Positions 77 through 10,927 of a stretch of 21,572 nt of DNA are shown piece by piece. This DNA comes from a virus. Its lineage: Duplodnaviria > Heunggongvirae > Uroviricota > Caudoviricetes. The position numbers and the translations under genes are program-made. Under the pieces are notes generated by a model that had not been told where the DNA came from, did no database searches, and was given only the letters and a program-made list of their open reading frames with translations. Each line of letters starts with the position of its first letter. Positions within the stretch are counted from its first letter, which is position 1. The stretch is taken from positions 1 to 21,572 of the IMG/VR virus record IMGVR_UViG_3300045988_085028; one strand, 5' to 3'.

Positions 77-754
77 CTAAACCGCTTTGAGCGTTCCCCG
101 AACCGTACCGACAACATATATGTCAACTATAAGGTTACCGTTACCAGACGCTGCTGAGCTCAAGGTGCATCTAAGTACGCACCCATTTTCTGTCCGAGAA
201 AACGTTCTTACGTCGTAAAGAGTTGAATCTGGTTGACCAGGAATTGCCACACCGACAAGCTCTGTTATCACATTAGGAGTTGCAACCCAACCAGTATATG
301 GATACGTTACTGTCAAATTGACAAATGAAGAGCCGGCTTGAATTGGTACTGATAACTGCTTTCTTACTACTGTATTCAACTCCCCCATTGAGGACACAAG
401 AGAAGAGTCCGGGGTGATATGAGTCATCAGGTTCACGCTGTTCAGGTTGCGCGTAATGTTAACAGCACTAATGCGGTTGGAAGTACTTTCATCCAATACA
501 GCGCTATACGCAGACAGAGCAGATTCCGAAATGATAACGCGGTTGTTAGCACTGGTAGCAGTTGCTCGCACCAATCTGTAGGTTAAGCCATTACTGTAAG
601 CACCTTTAATGTTCTGCATCAGCACCTGGTGCGAGGTCGCCCCATCCCCTAAGTACAGGAGGTTCGCACTATCTGCCGTGTCCCCATACTGACCGTCATA
701 CACTACTTGCGTATTAAGGATGTTAACACCAAATGCCCCTGCAGGGGACACCAT
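77..754 (-). CDS. Hypothetical beta-rich (S/T/N/V/G-rich) protein, 225 aa; candidate moron or lysogenic-conversion gene transcribed away from the att core
   Basis: Uninterrupted 225-codon ORF with ATG at 752-754 (MVSPAG encoded by the att core itself) and an in-frame stop immediately upstream. A GGGAG sits about 11 nt upstream. No signal peptide or TM segment is evident. I do not recognise the family. It is the only ORF of 60 aa or more in 1-878 on either strand. Confidence 0.45.
   Translation of the reverse strand: MVSPAGAFGVNILNTQVVYDGQYGDTADSANLLYLGDGATSHQVLMQNIKGAYSNGLTYRLVRATATSANNRVIISESALSAYSAVLDESTSNRISAVNITRNLNSVNLMTHITPDSSLVSSMGELNTVVRKQLSVPIQAGSSFVNLTVTYPYTGWVATPNVITELVGVAIPGQPDSTLYDVRTFSRTENGCVLRCTLSSAASGNGNLIVDIYVVGTVRGTLKAV
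738..753 (+). other. Attachment-site core: 16 bp identical to the 3' end (T-stem/acceptor/CCA) of tRNA-Arg(CCU) argW, without the rest of the tRNA
   Basis: CCTGCAGGGGACACCA at 738-753 matches the recalled 3' end of E. coli argW (...GATTCCTGCAGGGGACACCA). The sequence upstream (...caaatgcc) does not continue as a tRNA T-loop, so this looks like an attP-type core (or an attR-like junction), not an intact tRNA gene. Confidence 0.5.
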
Positions 755-914: not shown

Positions 915-2072
915 ATGCTCACCGTTAAGCAGATTGAAGCAGCAAAGCCGAAAGAAAAACCATACCGCCTACTCGATGGTAATGGCCTGTACCTTTATGT
1001 CCCTGTATCAGGGAAAAAGGTATGGCAGCTTCGCTACAAGATTGACGGTAAGGAGAAAATCCTGACCATCTGAAAATATCCGCTTATGACTTTGCAGAAG
1101 GCAAGGGATAAGGCATGGACTGCGAGGAAAGACATCTCGGTTGGCATCGATCCGGTAAAGGCGAAAAAGGCTTCGTCTAACAACAATTCCTTTAGTGCGA
1201 TTTACAAGGAATGGTACGAGCACAAGAAGCAAGTCTGGTCAGTAGGGTATGCGACTGAACTTGCAAAAATGTTTGATGACGACATTTTACCTATCATCGG
1301 CGTCCTTGAAATTCAGGATATTGAGCCGATGCAACTGCTGGAAGTAATCCGCAGATTTGAAGATCGCGGTGCAATGGAGCGAGCCAACAAAGCCCGCAGA
1401 AGATGCGGCGAGGTTTTCCGTTACGCTATTGTCACTGGTAGGGCTAAATATAACCCGGCACCTGACCTTGCTGACGCCATGAAGGGATACCGCAAGAAGA
1501 ACTTCCCATTTTTACCTGCCGACCAGATCCCGGCATTCAACAAAGCACTTGCAACATTTTCAGGAAGTATCGTATCGCTCATTGCTACTAAAATTTTACG
1601 CTACACCGCCCTAAGAACGAAAGAGCTTCGTTCCATGCAATGGAAGAACGTCGATTTTGAAAACAGGATTATCACCATCGACGCCAGTGTGATGAAGGGA
1701 CGCAAAATTCATGTGGTTCCTATGTCAGACCAGGTGGTTGAACTTCTCACTACGCTAAACTCAATCACCAAACCAGTATCAGAGTTTGTTTTTGCCGGGC
1801 GCAACGATAAGAAGAAGCCAATTTGCGAGAACGCTGTACTGCTTGTGATCAAACAAATCGGCTATGAAGGTCTGGAAAGCGGTCACGGATTCAGGCATGA
1901 ATTCAGCACGATTATGAACGAGCACGAATGGCCTGCTGATGCTATTGAAGTGCAACTGGCACATGCCAACGGCGGATCTGTGCGCGGGATTTACAACCAT
2001 GCTCAGTATCTCGATAAGCGCAGAGAAGTGATGCAGTGGTGGGCGGATTGGATTGATGAAAAGGTGGAGTGA
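915..2072 (+). pseudogene. intS: P4/IntS-family tyrosine integrase (about 385 codons) interrupted by an in-frame TGA at 1071-1073
   Basis: ORF-track segments 879..1073 and 1086..2072 are in the same frame and together read as one integrase: an N-terminal arm-binding (DUF4102-like) region MLTVKQIEAAKPKEKPYRLLDGNGLYLYVPVSGKKVWQLRYKIDGKEKILTI, then TGA, then KYPLMTLQKARDKAW and the catalytic domain. From memory this is close to E. coli IntS (CPS-53/KpLE1), which has TVGKYP where this window has TI-stop-KYP. The likely start is ATG at 915; position 879 is a GTG lying inside repeat motifs. The 328-aa downstream ORF alone would lack the arm-binding domain. Confidence 0.7.
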
Positions 2073-2089: not shown

Positions 2090-4084
2090 TTATTCAGCCT
2101 TAGCAAAAGTGGTCATAGTTGTTCCACTGAAAGTGAATGACCTGTCTGTAAGAGTAACATCCTGAATAGCAAAGTAATCGCCAACACCAGCGCCATTTAC
2201 ATAAAACTCGAATATCTCAGATGTATTTTCCGGAATAATATTATTAGCAATATAACACGTAGATAAAGAACCATTTGTTGATGGTAAAGTTCCAAATAGC
2301 GTTGCATCCGATGCAGCATATATCGAACTGCTTAAATAAATATTTATATCAACATTACTCTCATAAGTAACAATTAAGTACACCCGGTCGTTAACCTTCC
2401 ACCCTCTGTCTTTTATCTTAGTATTAAGTGATAGCTTGTTAGAACTAGGGTTCGTTACGGTATTAATGGTTATTTTTGCTCCTATTGAGTTGTATCTGCT
2501 TCTGGTTACTGTATTACCAGTATTGTTCATTGTATAAAGGATTGCCCTGCTTTCTGCAAACGTCCTCATATTGATCTTGCCTAAACAATCTCCTTCCATA
2601 ACTTGTGGGCCAGACACAGTTGCACCAATATAACAATCAGTAAATACAGCATGAGCCCTGTTGTCAGTGCTTGATGCAAGTAATGAAAGTTTAAAGTTGC
2701 CCTGATCTGCAATCCAGCAACTATCAACCTTAACTACAGCATCATTGTCAAGAACAACAAACCTTCCTCCCTCATTGTAATATCCTACAAAAGCATTTAC
2801 ACCGCTTATTTTTACTACTCCATCTGGAACCGTAAAGATATCGCCTTGTATCGCTTCGCCATAGTACCCGCCAACAATATTGGTCACTCGGGTATTTAAG
2901 TACATGCCATGCCCAATGCCGAACTCAAGGTCACATCCAATTAAGCTTAAACCTTCAATAGGGGAAGTACCAGAAGCATAAAAGGCATATTCACCGACCT
3001 TATTTGATGCAAATCCACAGTTATTGAACGTTACGCGGTTGTTAGCCCCAGCAAGGTGAACTCCGCGATTTGGCGCAGGAACAAAAGAACAGCAATCATA
3101 GGTATTAAGCCAGTCGTTTATAGTATAGAAGTTCGCCACCGCGCCATTGATGAAACGACAATTATGGGTTCTTCCTAGGTGAACATATTGAATTCGGCAA
3201 GGATAGTTGGCGATGTTGTTCCCATCAACTGTAACGTGAGAGATAGATGTGCTACGTCTTATAGAGTCAGTTTCGTAGTACATGTTGACAACTGCCTCTC
3301 CAGTGAACCCACTCCCCGCAATAATGAATGACTTCTCAACGCCATCCCCGAATAGGTCAACAGTGCCTATTGTTAAATCAACTGGTGACTTAACATAGTA
3401 AGTTCCTGCAGGGACAAACAGCCTCTTTCCTGCCGATAAAGCAACTGCTGCAGCAGCATTAAAGCTAGCTGAGTTATCTGCCGCTGGATCACCAGTAATG
3501 GGGAAAAATTGAGCAACAGAAATATAATCTGCTACCGTCACTTCGTACCATGGCAAAGCAGGAGATGACGGAAGAGTGCCACTACCACCGGTGTAGATTT
3601 TATTATTATACCACCACCAGTTATCAACATTAGATAACGCCCCCTCCTGCCATACACCGCCTAACGAGAAATCAAGACCGTAAGAAGTAGCTATCTGACT
3701 TAATGATAATGTTGCCCCTCTGTCAGAAGCTAATTCTTGCCTTAATTGGTCAGGGTCATACTTCAGGACATTAGGAAAATAGAACTGCTGCGCACCGTAC
3801 GCATCATAAACAGCCATAGAATGGCCTTGCACAGTTACGAATTTGGCAATCTGTCCGTTATATACAGGATAACCAGCAGCGTTAATGATGATTGGTTGCG
3901 AAACAGGAACGTGAGAACCGTCTTCGTTCTCTACATAAACCGGAATCTGGTTTTCAGTATTTACCGGGTCAGTGTCAATTTTACCGATATAAATTTTGCC
4001 ATTAGCTACGGCTTTAAAAGAACGCGCCATAGTGAAGAGTTGCGAAGGCATGCTAACTACAACATTGGCTGTAATGTCTGTCAT
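2090..4084 (-). CDS. Tailspike protein: P22 gp9-type N-terminal head-binding domain fused to a divergent beta-helix receptor-binding/depolymerase domain (664 aa)
   Basis: The N-terminal ~110 aa ([42 protein letters not shown]...VLKYDPDQ) match the conserved P22/Sf6 tailspike head-binding domain from memory. The remainder is not P22- or Sf6-like, is AT-richer, and has asparagine/glycine-ladder character typical of right-handed beta-helix depolymerases. A GGAG lies about 9 nt upstream of the ATG at 4082-4084. Confidence 0.9.
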
Positions 4085-4140: not shown

Positions 4141-4166
4141 ATAAAAAACCCAGCCGAAGCTGGGTC
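4141..4166 (-). terminator. Rho-independent terminator upstream of the tailspike, downstream of the ancestral ant reading frame
   Basis: On the - strand: CCCAGC-TTCG-GCTGGG (+ strand 4149-4164) followed by TTTTTTAT (complement of 4141-4148). Position matches the ant/gene 9 terminator arrangement of P22. Confidence 0.6.
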
Positions 4167-4354
4167 GTTGCGTTGGCTATCTGTCAGTAGTTATGTACTG
4201 AAGGAGGTAATTCTTTATTCTTAAGTCTCATCCATGCAGAAAGATTCGTTGGTCCGTCTGGCTCATTGATATCAACATCTCGTGTGTGGTTTATTAAAAC
4301 GTCTCTCGCCATCCCGATAACATACGAAAACTCATGACCGTAGTCGTAGCATCT

Positions 4355-4416
4355 GCCGGAATAGTTAGATTGTATTTGTTTTAATGCCGGAATAGTTAGA
4401 TTGTATTTGTTTTAAT
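4355..4416. repeat. Perfect tandem direct duplication of a 31-bp unit (gccggaatagttagattgtatttgttttaat x2, followed by a partial gccgga)
   Basis: Units at 4355-4385 and 4386-4416 are identical. The unit is 31 bp (not a multiple of 3) and lies at the 3' end of the ant reading frame. Confidence 0.9.
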
Positions 4417-5093
4417 GCCGGATACAGTTCGCGGAATAATGCCTGTGATCGGTTGGCATAATCCCATAACCATACAAGGCTGTTTGCTTCTTTTGCAGAA
4501 AGCTCGTTGGTTTTCTTCTCTTGTTTGCCAATGAACTCACCTTCAAGCACTACCCTGTGGATGTACTCTACGGCCAGCGGGATTTGTTCAATTGAAAGTT
4601 CATCAATGCTGTCAATACCAAAACGCTGATGAACCATATTGTATGCATCGTCATAACGAAGTCCTTTCTTTCCTACCAGCATGTTTACTGCATCGCGTAG
4701 CGGTGTTCTTTCCTCAACAGTGGTTTTCTTTCCTTTTACATACTCGCCATGTTTGCGAATTGAAGGCAGAACTTCTGCTGTTACCCACTTGCGGAATTTG
4801 TGCGGGACTGAACCTTTATTGACTGCATCGCGGCAGCGCAGAACCAATGTATACATACCTGATTCGCTCACAATGCTTAGATTCTGCTCACCACCAAGGG
4901 TGTAACTTAAAGTTACTCCCTTTTCATCGTCATCAAGTGCAGTAAGCGCCTTGCGTGAGTTAGTCAGGGTTAAAGCATCACAAACATCTTTTGCTACAAA
5001 CCACGGCTCACCGCACTTGTTGATGACGCGGATTTCACTGTCGCCGAATTTGAAGATGGTGAAATCGTTTTGTGCCTTTGCTATACTTTTCAT
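4365..5093 (-). CDS. ant: Antirepressor Ant (BRO-N/KilA-type), C-terminally truncated by the 31-bp duplication (242 aa as encoded)
   Basis: Sits downstream of arc on the same strand, as in P22 immI. N-terminal region is BRO/antirepressor-like. AGGAA lies about 9 nt upstream of the ATG at 5091-5093. The last 7 codons (GIKTNTI-stop) are read from the second repeat copy in a shifted frame. Confidence 0.8.
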
Positions 5094-5161: not shown

Positions 5162-5323
5162 TTACGCACCAATGCGCCCTTCCTTCTTAAAGCTTTCCAT
5201 TACTCTCTGATAAATCTCAGAGTTAACAGACCGACCATTCTCTTCCGCCACCTTGCGTATCAAATCCAATACTTCTTTAGGCCACCGCAAATTGAACTGC
5301 GGCATCTTGCTCATTCCTTTCAT
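5162..5323 (-). CDS. arc: Arc repressor (53 aa, ribbon-helix-helix)
   Basis: MKGMSKMPQFNLRWPKEVLDLIRKVAEENGRSVNSEIYQRVMESFKKEGRIGA is near-identical to P22 Arc from memory. GAGGTG lies 3 nt upstream of the ATG at 5321-5323. The ORF-track entry 5162..5533 is an upstream in-frame extension with no support. Confidence 0.9.
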   Translation of the reverse strand: MKGMSKMPQFNLRWPKEVLDLIRKVAEENGRSVNSEIYQRVMESFKKEGRIGA

Positions 5324-5338
5324 ATTCACCTCACAATA

Positions 5339-5386
5339 TAGGTCCACGGTGGACCTATTGAGAATATAGTAGACTGCTTCTATCAT
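5339..5386. promoter_or_regulatory. Divergent immI control region carrying the Mnt operator (palindrome TAGGTCCACGGTGGACCTA, 5339-5357) and the Arc operator (ATAGTAGACTGCTTCTATCAT, 5366-5386), overlapping the Pant/Pmnt promoters
   Basis: The 19-bp perfect palindrome matches the P22 Omnt sequence. The adjacent 21-bp site is the P22 Oarc sequence with one or two substitutions. Both lie in the 90-bp gap between the divergent arc and mnt starts. Confidence 0.75.
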
Positions 5387-5413
5387 GTCAATACACTGAC
5401 TTGGAGTAATGGC

Positions 5414-5668
5414 ATGGCTAGAGATGATCCGCACTTTAACTTCCGCATGCCTTTGGAAGTGAGAGAAAAATTGAAATTCAGAGCAGAGGCGAATGGGAGA
5501 TCCATGAACTCCGAGCTGTTGCAAATCGTCCAAGATGCTCTATCGAGACCATCTCCTGTAAAAGGTAATCGCAATGAAGCTGAACGATTAGCCGAGATGC
5601 AGGCTGAACAGTTCAAGTCTGTGGTATTTGAGACACTTAAAAACATGTATGGCAAGGATGCAAAATGA
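5414..5668 (+). CDS. mnt: Mnt maintenance repressor (84 aa)
   Basis: MARDDPHFNFRMPLEVREKLKFRAEANGRSMNSELLQIVQDAL... matches P22 Mnt from memory. GGAG lies 8 nt upstream of the ATG. Its stop overlaps the next start (ATGA). Confidence 0.9.
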   Translation: MARDDPHFNFRMPLEVREKLKFRAEANGRSMNSELLQIVQDALSRPSPVKGNRNEAERLAEMQAEQFKSVVFETLKNMYGKDAK

Positions 5669-6246
5669 TCGATTACAACCCAGCAAAAAAAGAAATCATC
5701 GCAGCTAAAAAGTGCCTAGAGCAGATGAAATCATCTACAAACCATGATGATTTTGAAATGCACTGGCGAGAATGTCTTGGGCATATAGAAAAGTCTTTCA
5801 GTAAGTTGCTCTGTGCAACAAAGCCGGTTAGTGGAAAATTTAGCAGCCACTTCAACCAAAAGTTCATGCTTAGAAAAACAGACAAAACACTTGCTTACCT
5901 TCACCAGGCAAGGAATGCTGATCATCATTCCACTATGGAAATCTCAAAACTTGAACCTCCTTATACTACTCTTGGGGCATTTCCGGGAGCAAGAAGTCAT
6001 TATATTAAAGAGTTAATCATTGATTCAACAGGGGAAATAGCAAAATACGAAGGCGACCCTATGATAGTTGAGTTTCATCCAGCAACAACTATGCCTATAA
6101 CCGTAAGAAACCAAGGCAAAGATTATCCACCTCCAACAGAACATCTTGGCGAAAAGCTTGTTGATATACATCCATCTGTTCTTGCCTATCTCGGTATACA
6201 ATTTTATGAAAAATGGATAGATGAGTCGTGTGCAACGTTTAGATAG
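5665..6246 (+). CDS. Hypothetical soluble protein (193 aa), translationally coupled to mnt; function unknown
   Basis: ATG at 5665-5667 overlaps the mnt stop (TGA 5666-5668). Uninterrupted ORF in an AT-rich segment. No TM segments. I do not recognise the family. Confidence 0.6.
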   Translation: MIDYNPAKKEIIAAKKCLEQMKSSTNHDDFEMHWRECLGHIEKSFSKLLCATKPVSGKFSSHFNQKFMLRKTDKTLAYLHQARNADHHSTMEISKLEPPYTTLGAFPGARSHYIKELIIDSTGEIAKYEGDPMIVEFHPATTMPITVRNQGKDYPPPTEHLGEKLVDIHPSVLAYLGIQFYEKWIDESCATFR

Positions 6247-6463
6247 TTATTTTTGATAATTTCAAGTATTTCCTCTTGACTTTGATTTACCCAAACGTGA
6301 TCACACTCATGAAACCAGATTATGCTTCCTGTTTCGCCTTGTGCAATATAGGTGATCATGTTTTCATTAACAATTATTACTGAGTTATCATGTGCGCAAT
6401 TTAGTTTTATCAATTCGCATATCCTATCGTGACAAAGTAACTAGAAAAACTAAAGAGGTTGGT

Positions 6464-6958
6464 GTGTCTGATTCTATGAGTTACGCTGTGCTAGTTGCCG
6501 CAACTCTATTTATGGGGATAGGGTTGCAGATTGCGTGGTTCTTTTTTTCTAGTTTTATTAAACGCAAAAGAATTGAATCAAGGATATCTGAGATTTCTAT
6601 TGCTATAGGGAAAAATGCTGAAAATCCAGAGAATGAGGCCTGCGCACTGAATTACCTTAAAGAAAAGTTTTCCCCTGAAAAATTTGAAAATAGAATTACT
6701 GATGCTCTTGGATTGGTAATATCAGTAATTCATACGCCACTAAGTTTGCTGATAACAGTGTGGTACTTCGCCATGATCGCCGGAAGAATATTTGGTTTAA
6801 TGAATATAGAGCCTGTAGTTCTTTGGGTTCCAATGATACTGCAACTGTTGTTAAGCGTTGCTATCTTTATTTTTTCTGTTTTTATAAAAATTGTCTTTGG
6901 AAGATACCCCGGAGAAGCTAAGGGATTTAATAAAGAATTCATAAAAACTATAAAATAA
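6464..6958 (+). CDS. Predicted inner-membrane protein (about 4 TM helices) at the position of P22 sieA; candidate superinfection-exclusion protein
   Basis: Hydrophobic segments [47 protein letters not shown] and [24 protein letters not shown]. The ORF track starts at GTG 6392 with no RBS. GTG 6464 has AAAGAGG 6 nt upstream; ATG 6476 is the alternative. Stop at 6956-6958. Lies between mnt and gp16 like P22 sieA, but sequence similarity to SieA is not established. Confidence 0.55.
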
Positions 6959-10234: not shown

Positions 10235-10927
10235 TTAAAACAACGAGCCAAGCAATCCGATACCAGCACCAATGCCAGCGCCCCAAGGTGTTGATGTTCC
10301 CAAAAGGCTGGCAAGACCTGCACCGGCAATCGCACCAGACGTTCCGCCACTAATTGCTGTCTGAAGACTTGATGGTTTGTTGGCATTAGCAGCGGCAAGA
10401 GCTGCGCTTTGCTGTGCAATGCTGCTCATGTTGTTGGCGTACGTCTGCCCGGCGTTTGCCTGACCTTGCAGAGCACCAAGCCCAACGTTTGCCAGATTGT
10501 TGTAATTGCTCATCTGGTTTGATAACCAAGACTGACCGAGAGTCGGCGCGATCGTAGCCAGTTGATTGCTTGTGGCTGTCGAACCAAGTCCTCCCGTAGC
10601 CTCCGCAGCAGCAAGACTCTGGTAACGAGCCTGACCTGCAAGGTCTTTATACTGCTGAGAGTTGTAATACTGATTAAGTGCCTGCCCCTGACCTTCTAAA
10701 CTGGAAAGGTTCTGAAGCTGGTTAACATACTGCTCCGCAAGAGGCGTGAACGGAGCAAGGTTTTTCATGATCGTCTGCCACTGCTGATTTTGCAGGTCTG
10801 CGGCATACTTCTGAGCTTCTGCTGCATACTTTGCGCTTTTATCAGAGCTACCACCTTTCCCGCCTTTTTCAGGGCACCAAGGTTCCTCGCCGCGCAGTTT
10901 TCTGCCCAGCTTAAATGCATATAACAT
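10235..10927 (-). CDS. Ejection protein gp7
   Basis: 230 aa; MLYAFKLGRKLRGEEP...GGKGGSSDKSAKYAAEAQKYAADLQNQQ and the glycine-rich C-terminus closely match P22 gp7 from memory. Confidence 0.85.
   Translation of the reverse strand: MLYAFKLGRKLRGEEPWCPEKGGKGGSSDKSAKYAAEAQKYAADLQNQQWQTIMKNLAPFTPLAEQYVNQLQNLSSLEGQGQALNQYYNSQQYKDLAGQARYQSLAAAEATGGLGSTATSNQLATIAPTLGQSWLSNQMSNYNNLANVGLGALQGQANAGQTYANNMSSIAQQSAALAAANANKPSSLQTAISGGTSGAIAGAGLASLLGTSTPWGAGIGAGIGLLGSLF

Follow-up and report, generated by a model that had tools for sequence, protein, structure and literature searches.

In the phage sequence analyzed here, the reading frame of the antirepressor gene ant ends prematurely within a perfectly duplicated 31-bp segment, which raises the question of whether the gene was inactivated by mutation, is subject to a reversible slipped-strand switch, or was altered only during sequence assembly. 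The window, i.e., the whole stretch of 21,572 nucleotides that was analyzed (IMG/VR record IMGVR_UViG_3300045988_085028), comprises the late region and the integration end of a P22-like (Lederbergvirus-type) temperate Escherichia coli phage. The best whole-window matches were E. coli prophages and the phages CUS-3, phiv205-1 and Kapi1 (~95–97% over 54–76%), and no near-identical match was found in this comparison. Among the three alternatives mentioned, which had been put forward in an initial annotation of the locus, the evidence favors a genuine inactivating mutation. Bearing in mind that the two-copy allele is known from one sequence and that 31 is a very common de Bruijn k-mer length, the lesion is probably a genuine, very recent and lineage-private loss-of-function mutation of ant in a P22-like temperate E. 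coli phage.

Structure of the duplication and the interrupted reading frame

The repeat was reported by Tandem Repeats Finder at positions 4354–4422 (period 31, 2.2 copies, 100% matches, 0 indels, score 138), and it was the only strong tandem array reported by this program in the window. Self-identity at an offset of 31 spans positions 4354–4391, corresponding to two full 31-bp units and the first 7 bases of another. According to our own arithmetic, the chance of 38 consecutive matches at one offset is about 4^-38 (~1e-23) per position; therefore, the repeat is not a chance occurrence. On the coding (minus) strand, the sequence reads ...CTG TAT / CCGGCATTAAAACAAATACAATCTAACTATT / CCGGCATTAAAACAAATACAATCTAACTATT / CCGGCAG ATG C..., and AACTATTCCGGCATTAAAAC was taken as the two-copy junction sequence. 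In one of the eight equivalent registers, the gene-proximal copy occupies positions 4391–4421, the gene-distal copy 4360–4390, and the beginning of the third unit 4354–4359. The comparison with relatives and the offset-31 scan also delimited a 7-bp microhomology on the coding strand, TCCGGCA (TGCCGGA on the plus strand), which is found at 4354–4360, 4385–4391 and 4416–4422. The perfect 31-bp tandem duplication within ant that had been proposed in the initial annotation was therefore confirmed by both approaches; the span given for it there (4184–4416) covers the repeat together with the orphaned 3′ end of the gene, but the repeat itself corresponds to 4354–4422.

Since 31 equals 3n+1, translation proceeds out of the native frame after Gly236, adding the residues IKTNTI before a stop codon. 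The resulting truncated ORF (4365–5093, minus strand), defined from the ORF list, the domain search and the comparison with the restored protein, encodes 242 aa, i.e., 236 native residues plus IKTNTI, and ends at the premature TAA 4365–4367. The frameshift and the truncation of ant to 242 aa were thus as previously described. However, seven aberrant residues had been claimed, whereas only six were counted, with residue 237 being the first difference between the truncated and the restored proteins, because the 7-bp microhomology keeps S235 and G236 native. When one unit was deleted in silico, an 879-nt ORF was obtained, encoding 292 aa and ending at TGA 4184–4186, and the 57 further codons expected after this repair were found to correspond to 56 residues and the stop. 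These last 56 native residues and the TGA constitute the orphaned 3′ end of ant (4184–4364, minus strand), which was defined by frame check and allele comparisons. In agreement with the initial annotation, this segment is open in one frame only, that of the restored Ant, while several stops are found in the other two frames.

Programmed frameshifting (recoding) was also considered as an explanation for this arrangement. Recoding signals were sought by reading the sequence from the alternative-frame TAA of the first copy up to TAA 4365–4367 and none was seen. Recoding is unlikely, since neither a canonical slippery heptamer nor a +1 site of the prfB type is present there.

Domain content and relationship with P22 Ant

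Two domains were recognized in the antirepressor. Bro-N (PF02498) occupies residues 20–110 (profile positions 1–96 of 96; 72.8 bits, cut-off 25.6), and P22_AR_C (PF10548) occupies residues 192–264 of the restored protein (profile positions 1–73 of 73; 103.5 bits, cut-off 22.4). In the actual 242-aa ORF, only positions 1–45 of the 73-position P22_AR_C profile are covered (62.5 bits). Therefore, ant is a disrupted member of the P22-type antirepressors, with an incomplete P22_AR_C domain. The lost segment of 56 residues comprises the last 28 of the 73 P22_AR_C positions and a 28-residue tail; 50 of these residues (~89%) are identical to those of P22 Ant, and 6 of the 57 codons are non-synonymous. 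A search for Ant in NCBIfam gave no match.

Residues 122–292 of the restored Ant align with residues 130–300 of P22 Ant with 85% identity over 171 aa (E=5e-114), up to the final residue, which demonstrates that the C-terminal extension recovered by the in silico repair is strongly Ant-like, as the proposed alignment to Ant homologues was meant to verify. The length of ~292 aa had been noted to be close to the 300 aa of P22 Ant; likeness in sequence holds for these C-terminal 171 residues, but not for the N-terminus, where the first 120 residues, carrying the Bro-N domain, are unrelated to the P22 Ant N-terminus. In addition to this N-terminal replacement, the gene differs from that of P22 in being split by the 31-bp duplication. 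It was previously reported that Ant proteins are modular mosaics, whose N- and C-terminal parts are exchanged, and that the Ant of the Stx phage Phi24B is 82% identical to P22 Ant across the final 104 residues (PMC3064807). The Ant described here is a mosaic like that of Phi24B.

Among the closest known counterparts are the 292-aa Ant proteins of Enterobacteriaceae prophages (P0121/P0001 cluster, e.g., WP_434398083.1 from the E. coli BA92 prophage), which share the same Bro-N and P22_AR_C combination. The repaired Ant is identical to P0121 and 97% identical to the cluster representative, whereas the actual product of the window has 242 aa instead of 292 and carries the six-residue aberrant tail. 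The Ant-family homologues listed overwhelmingly present the full C-terminus (292–304 aa). Additionally, the AlphaFold2 model of a 97%-identical 292-aa homologue (mean pLDDT 62; 65–81 over residues 201–260) predicts, with moderate confidence, long helices at residues 200–229 and 235–259. According to this model, and with the same moderate confidence, the cut at residue 236 would remove the second predicted helix at its start. No solved structure of an Ant homologue was retrieved by a PDB sequence search.

Among the Ant-like homologues, four proteins of 401–483 aa (P0075–P0078) present JAB (PF14464) and NlpC/P60 (PF00877) domains between Bro-N and P22AR_C, an odd architecture that may reflect gene fusion or mis-assembly.

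The immI region and its regulatory elements

The genes around ant are arranged in the order tailspike, terminator, ant, arc, Pant/Oarc/Omnt, mnt, a gene without assigned function and a SieA-like gene. An immI context of the kind expected for a P22-type Ant was found by P22 alignment, Pfam search and promoter/terminator scans. The order and orientation are the same as those of the P22 immI region, with mnt divergent from arc-ant, followed by the terminator and the tailspike gene, and the Pant/Oarc/Omnt sites are nearly identical in both. The arc gene (5162–5323, minus strand; 53 aa) and the mnt gene (5414–5668, plus strand; 84 aa), which encodes an Arc-like RHH and the Mnt C-terminal domain and is divergent from arc-ant, are both intact according to P22 alignment and Pfam. 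The Pant promoter (5363–5391, minus strand; TTGACA, 17 nt, TATATT, 11 of 12 matches) was detected by promoter scan and P22 alignment and overlaps the Arc operator, while the Mnt operator ATAGGTCCACCGTGGACCTAT is found just downstream of it. Pant and both operators align with the annotated P22 sites. The same two approaches revealed a promoter-like site in antisense orientation to the 5′ end of ant (5059–5087, plus strand), at the position of P22 Psar. According to the alignment with the P22 record, the hairpin of the sar terminator has been conserved in the interval between arc and ant.

On the other side of the gene, a terminator scan identified the ant intrinsic terminator (4147–4166, minus strand), composed of an 8-bp G+C-rich stem and a T run. 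It lies 18 nt past the native stop codon, is kept in the relatives and is found at the position of the annotated P22 ant terminator. The next gene downstream of ant encodes the tailspike (2090–4084, minus strand), with a P22-type head-binding domain and a pectate-lyase-like beta-helix. In phage Kapi1 (locus L002, 2560–3060), an HNH endonuclease gene is located between ant and tailspike, and it is absent from both the window and BA92.

The possibility that the loss of ant was selected as a suppressor of a defect in arc, mnt or their operators was rejected, since no damage was seen in arc, mnt, Oarc, Omnt or sar. Two differences were observed in this region: at its central base, the Arc operator has G in the window and C in P22 and BA92 (within 5363–5391), and Arc carries V22I (codon 22, about 5258–5260). 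Both are shared with the E. coli P13-6 prophage, whose ant is intact, and they are therefore not linked to the ant lesion.

Beyond mnt, a gene whose start overlaps the mnt stop codon (5665–6246, plus strand) encodes a 193-aa protein assigned to phrog_23516, without Pfam match. It is followed by a gene for a SieA-like superinfection-exclusion protein of 188 aa (6392–6958, plus strand; phrog_7745).

Distribution of the one-copy and two-copy alleles

A natural protein (P0121) found on 965 public contigs, entitled ‘MULTISPECIES: P22AR C-terminal domain-containing protein [Enterobacteriaceae]’, has exactly the sequence of the restored 292-aa Ant. In contrast, the truncated 242-aa Ant was found on a single 40,991-bp contig (sources JGI/IMG and ENA) among ~15 billion proteins. 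One copy of the 31-bp unit is present in every relative examined, namely the E. coli BA92 prophage, in which ant is annotated at 879 nt and 292 aa, phage Kapi1, the E. coli P13-6 prophage and E. coli ST12468. The comparison of the same locus among relatives, which had been recommended as a check, therefore revealed one-copy alleles throughout and no conserved short Ant.

A 106-bp probe spanning the repeat matched 689 E. coli genomes, and each of the top matches listed is split into two pieces that together cover 75 bases (106 minus 31). With the E-value limit set such that only an uninterrupted two-copy match could pass it, neither the 5,426 complete E. coli genomes nor the 50,697 phage records searched gave a match. 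On the other hand, 974 E. coli genomes gave gap-free matches covering 80% or more of the 280-nt segment carrying one copy in silico, with the best match reaching 99.6%. It was also observed that the 3′ half of ant is multi-copy and mosaic, occurring in up to six places per E. coli genome.

Searches for the junction itself gave a similar picture. The exact 30-mer junction had no matches in the GTDB representative genomes or in IMG/VR. A degenerate 22-mer version matched three genomes and four metagenome loci in the GTDB representatives and JGI metagenomes, and none in IMG/VR. These seven matches were rejected as two-copy alleles and attributed to chance, since none of them fits the longer junction pattern; the flanks of the four metagenome loci are unrelated, and the three genome matches belong to Chlorobiota or Lachnospiraceae MAGs.

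The closest allele, that of ST12468, is identical to the window sequence through the whole unit and everything downstream of it to the terminator, and the only differences are a single synonymous base change upstream (CGC/CGA) and the absence of the second copy. The A found in AAATACAAT was considered as a candidate window-private change older than the duplication, which was rejected because ST12468 carries it in its single copy. The orphaned 3′ end presents no differences from the one-copy ST12468 allele, which indicates that the orphaned tail is undecayed, and its 57 codons present five synonymous and no non-synonymous codon differences from BA92. The recent origin that had been attributed to the duplication is supported by both comparisons. 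Judging from these allele comparisons, the two-copy ant allele appears to be private and very young.

Origin of the duplication

The one-copy alleles of Kapi1, P13-6 and ST12468 carry two TCCGGCA heptamers at a distance of exactly 31 bp, while BA92 has an imperfect first heptamer (TCCGGCG). The endpoints of the duplication coincide with this heptamer, and the periodic run is 62+7 bases long because the duplication starts and ends on it. The 21.5-kb window contains only two offset-31 runs of 7 bp or more; therefore, an arbitrary 31-bp duplication, such as one resulting from an untrimmed k=31 overlap, would coincide with such a run at p~7.4e-4. Endpoints placed on a pre-existing 7-bp direct repeat are a signature of replication slippage. 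It is already established that small variable segments of bacterial genomes can arise by slippage between repeats of less than 30 bp (PMC2884548).

The event could be explained by a simple model. In the intact ant, the two TCCGGCA heptamers would stand 31 bp apart, and, once the second heptamer had been copied during replication, the nascent strand could re-pair with the first one, so that the intervening 31 bp would be copied again. This process would correspond to slipped-strand mispairing or short-homology illegitimate recombination. As in the cases described for the latter, a short segment bounded by a direct repeat of less than 30 bp was gained (PMC2884548); deletions are the outcome more commonly noted, whereas the ant case is a duplication, which otherwise has no distinctive feature.

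Additional evidence comes from the composition of the gene and from other alleles. In the restored ant, 11 pairs of direct repeats of 7 bp or more were counted at 8–100 bp spacing, against 4.0 ± 2.0 in shuffled sequences. A 247-aa homologue (P0004) presents an in-frame 45-residue deletion exactly between 11-bp repeats (CGCGATGCAGT, spacing 135 nt), and a 221-aa homologue (P0016) presents an in-frame 71-residue deletion exactly between 10-bp repeats (AAGAAAACCA, spacing 213 nt); each of them was found on a single contig. By the position of their endpoints, both are slippage alleles that arose independently in this gene. Overall, ant seems prone to slippage events.

Alternative explanations

A different origin would be technical: the real ant would be one-copy, and the second copy would result from a k-mer overlap (k=31 or 32) joined untrimmed, or from a polymerase slip during library amplification. 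The unit length coincides with a de Bruijn k in very wide use, the allele was found on one contig among ~15 billion proteins and in no other collection searched, and the multi-copy, mosaic 3′ half of ant is the type of site where assembly graphs branch. The absence of decay in the orphaned tail is also predicted by such an origin, and slippage of a polymerase in vitro would leave the same microhomology signature. However, a k-mer join duplicates an arbitrary 31-mer, while the endpoints observed here are those of a native 7-bp repeat, a coincidence of p~7.4e-4 that slippage predicts. By our own reasoning, a 7-bp repeat is also too short to create a graph cycle at k of at least 21. Moreover, no other indel noise was detected, late-gene lengths agree with those of relatives, and the stop codon found in the integrase gene also occurs in an independent genome. 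The technical explanation is weakened by these observations and is considered unlikely. A genuine mutation is preferred, and we infer that the lesion arose in vivo.

If genuine, the duplication could still be one state of a reversible switch, with one-copy (Ant ON) and two-copy (Ant OFF) forms alternating as a bet-hedging control of anti-immunity. The perfect 38-bp direct repeat could indeed be precisely removed by the same slippage, restoring an undamaged gene, and the heptamer pair is conserved in several relatives. However, BA92 carries TCCGGCG as its first heptamer, which leaves the motif without evident constraint, and no copy-number polymorphism was detected, with no two-copy allele among the 974 E. 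coli genomes carrying the segment or among the phage records, and no true junction match in IMG/VR, GTDB representatives or JGI metagenomes. Repeat-number polymorphism among related genomes, by which a phase-variable locus is recognized, was thus not found. Known contingency loci consist of long tracts of short units, unlike the two 31-bp copies described here, and ant already has three dedicated regulators, all of them intact. An evolved switch finds no support in these data, and it is highly improbable that the one- and two-copy states interconvert often enough to provide a heritable, reversible OFF/ON antirepressor switch. Were it the case, some virions could overcome the immunity of a resident prophage and others could not, and a fourth layer of ant control would be added to Mnt, Arc and sar. 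A genuine mutation might also be neutral remodelling of the C-terminus, with the 242-aa protein still functional as an antirepressor or in another Bro-N-dependent role. The intact Bro-N (72.8 bits) and residues 1–236, as well as the modular mosaic nature of Ant proteins (PMC3064807), are compatible with this idea. On the other hand, the lost 56-residue segment ranks with the best-conserved parts of the family (50 residues as in P22 Ant), in line with the 82% identity between Phi24B and P22 Ant across the final 104 residues (PMC3064807), and the homologues listed overwhelmingly retain the full C-terminus (292–304 aa). The cut would also fall, with moderate confidence, at the start of the predicted helix 235–259, after the helix 200–229. 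Residual function is therefore regarded as improbable, and the preferred explanation remains a loss-of-function mutation.

Consequences of the ant lesion

Considering conservation and domain coverage, the 242-aa product is most likely inactive as an antirepressor, although it would keep Bro-N and the conserved middle region of the protein. The phage should still grow and lysogenize, without Ant-mediated inactivation of a resident c2/CI-type repressor; if the allele is real, it should fail to anti-repress resident prophages. The downstream terminator and the tailspike gene are unchanged by the ant lesion, and tailspike expression is expected to be unaffected. All late genes of the window match their GPEC859 counterparts in length, and all virion genes look intact.

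The ant gene is an accessory and dispensable gene. In the P22-like phages HK620 and Scho1, the ant genes are degraded, and the ‘ant moron’ was described as a high-flux region (PMC2629481). As in these phages, an accessory ant located between the DNA-injection genes and the tailspike was lost while the virion genes remained intact (PMC2629481). However, HK620 and Scho1 carry degraded remnants, whereas a single fresh lesion is found here, with the rest of ant undecayed and its regulators intact. The loss of ant was presumably neutral or mildly favorable. What is observed is an ordinary frameshift allele of recent origin, in a well-known accessory gene of a well-known regulatory module, and it involves no new system or mechanism; it offers a clean, datable textbook case of the onset of decay in temperate-phage ‘moron’ genes. 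In annotations, the locus should appear as a single disrupted ant (pseudogene, frameshifted by a 31-bp tandem duplication) rather than as a gene for a 242-aa antirepressor with 180 bp of intergenic DNA behind it.

Other features of the window

The integrase gene of the window (915–2072, plus strand), of the IntS/argW type and encoding 384 aa in relatives, carries an in-frame TGA at 1071–1073 (codon 53). The corresponding codon is GGA in GPEC859, and the ORF finder gives only a 328-aa ORF starting at 1086. In E. coli O141:H4 P13-6, intS is a RefSeq pseudogene with an ‘internal stop’. Since the stop is also found in this independent genome, the lesion was inherited and is no error of the window sequence. 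Being shared with P13-6 and older than the ant event, it cannot be used as an argument for a decaying prophage.

Homology to argW-integrated prophages begins at about 738 (~738–754) with a tRNA-Arg 3′ end (CCTGCAGGGGACACCA), and no tRNA genes were detected in the window by ARAGORN. Positions 1–737 match P13-6 at 99.7% (locus L012, NZ_CP080223.1, 1–5072). In this genome, the block formed by an acyltransferase gene, a hypothetical protein gene, an att remnant and the dead intS lies inside a defective prophage located between bioA/ybhB and ybhC. By this comparison, the integration module of the argW type resembles a fossil that is carried along as cargo. A 225-aa ORF (77–754, minus strand), without Pfam or PHROG match, corresponds to a 180-aa hypothetical protein in P13-6. 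The neighbor of its P13-6 homologue is an acyltransferase-family gene, possibly involved in O-antigen modification, which would lie just beyond the window start.

Finally, an imperfect 21-bp tandem repeat of two copies, with 86% identity and in-frame length, is located at 10797–10838, within the gene for a 230-aa gp7-like DNA-transfer protein (10235–10927, minus strand).
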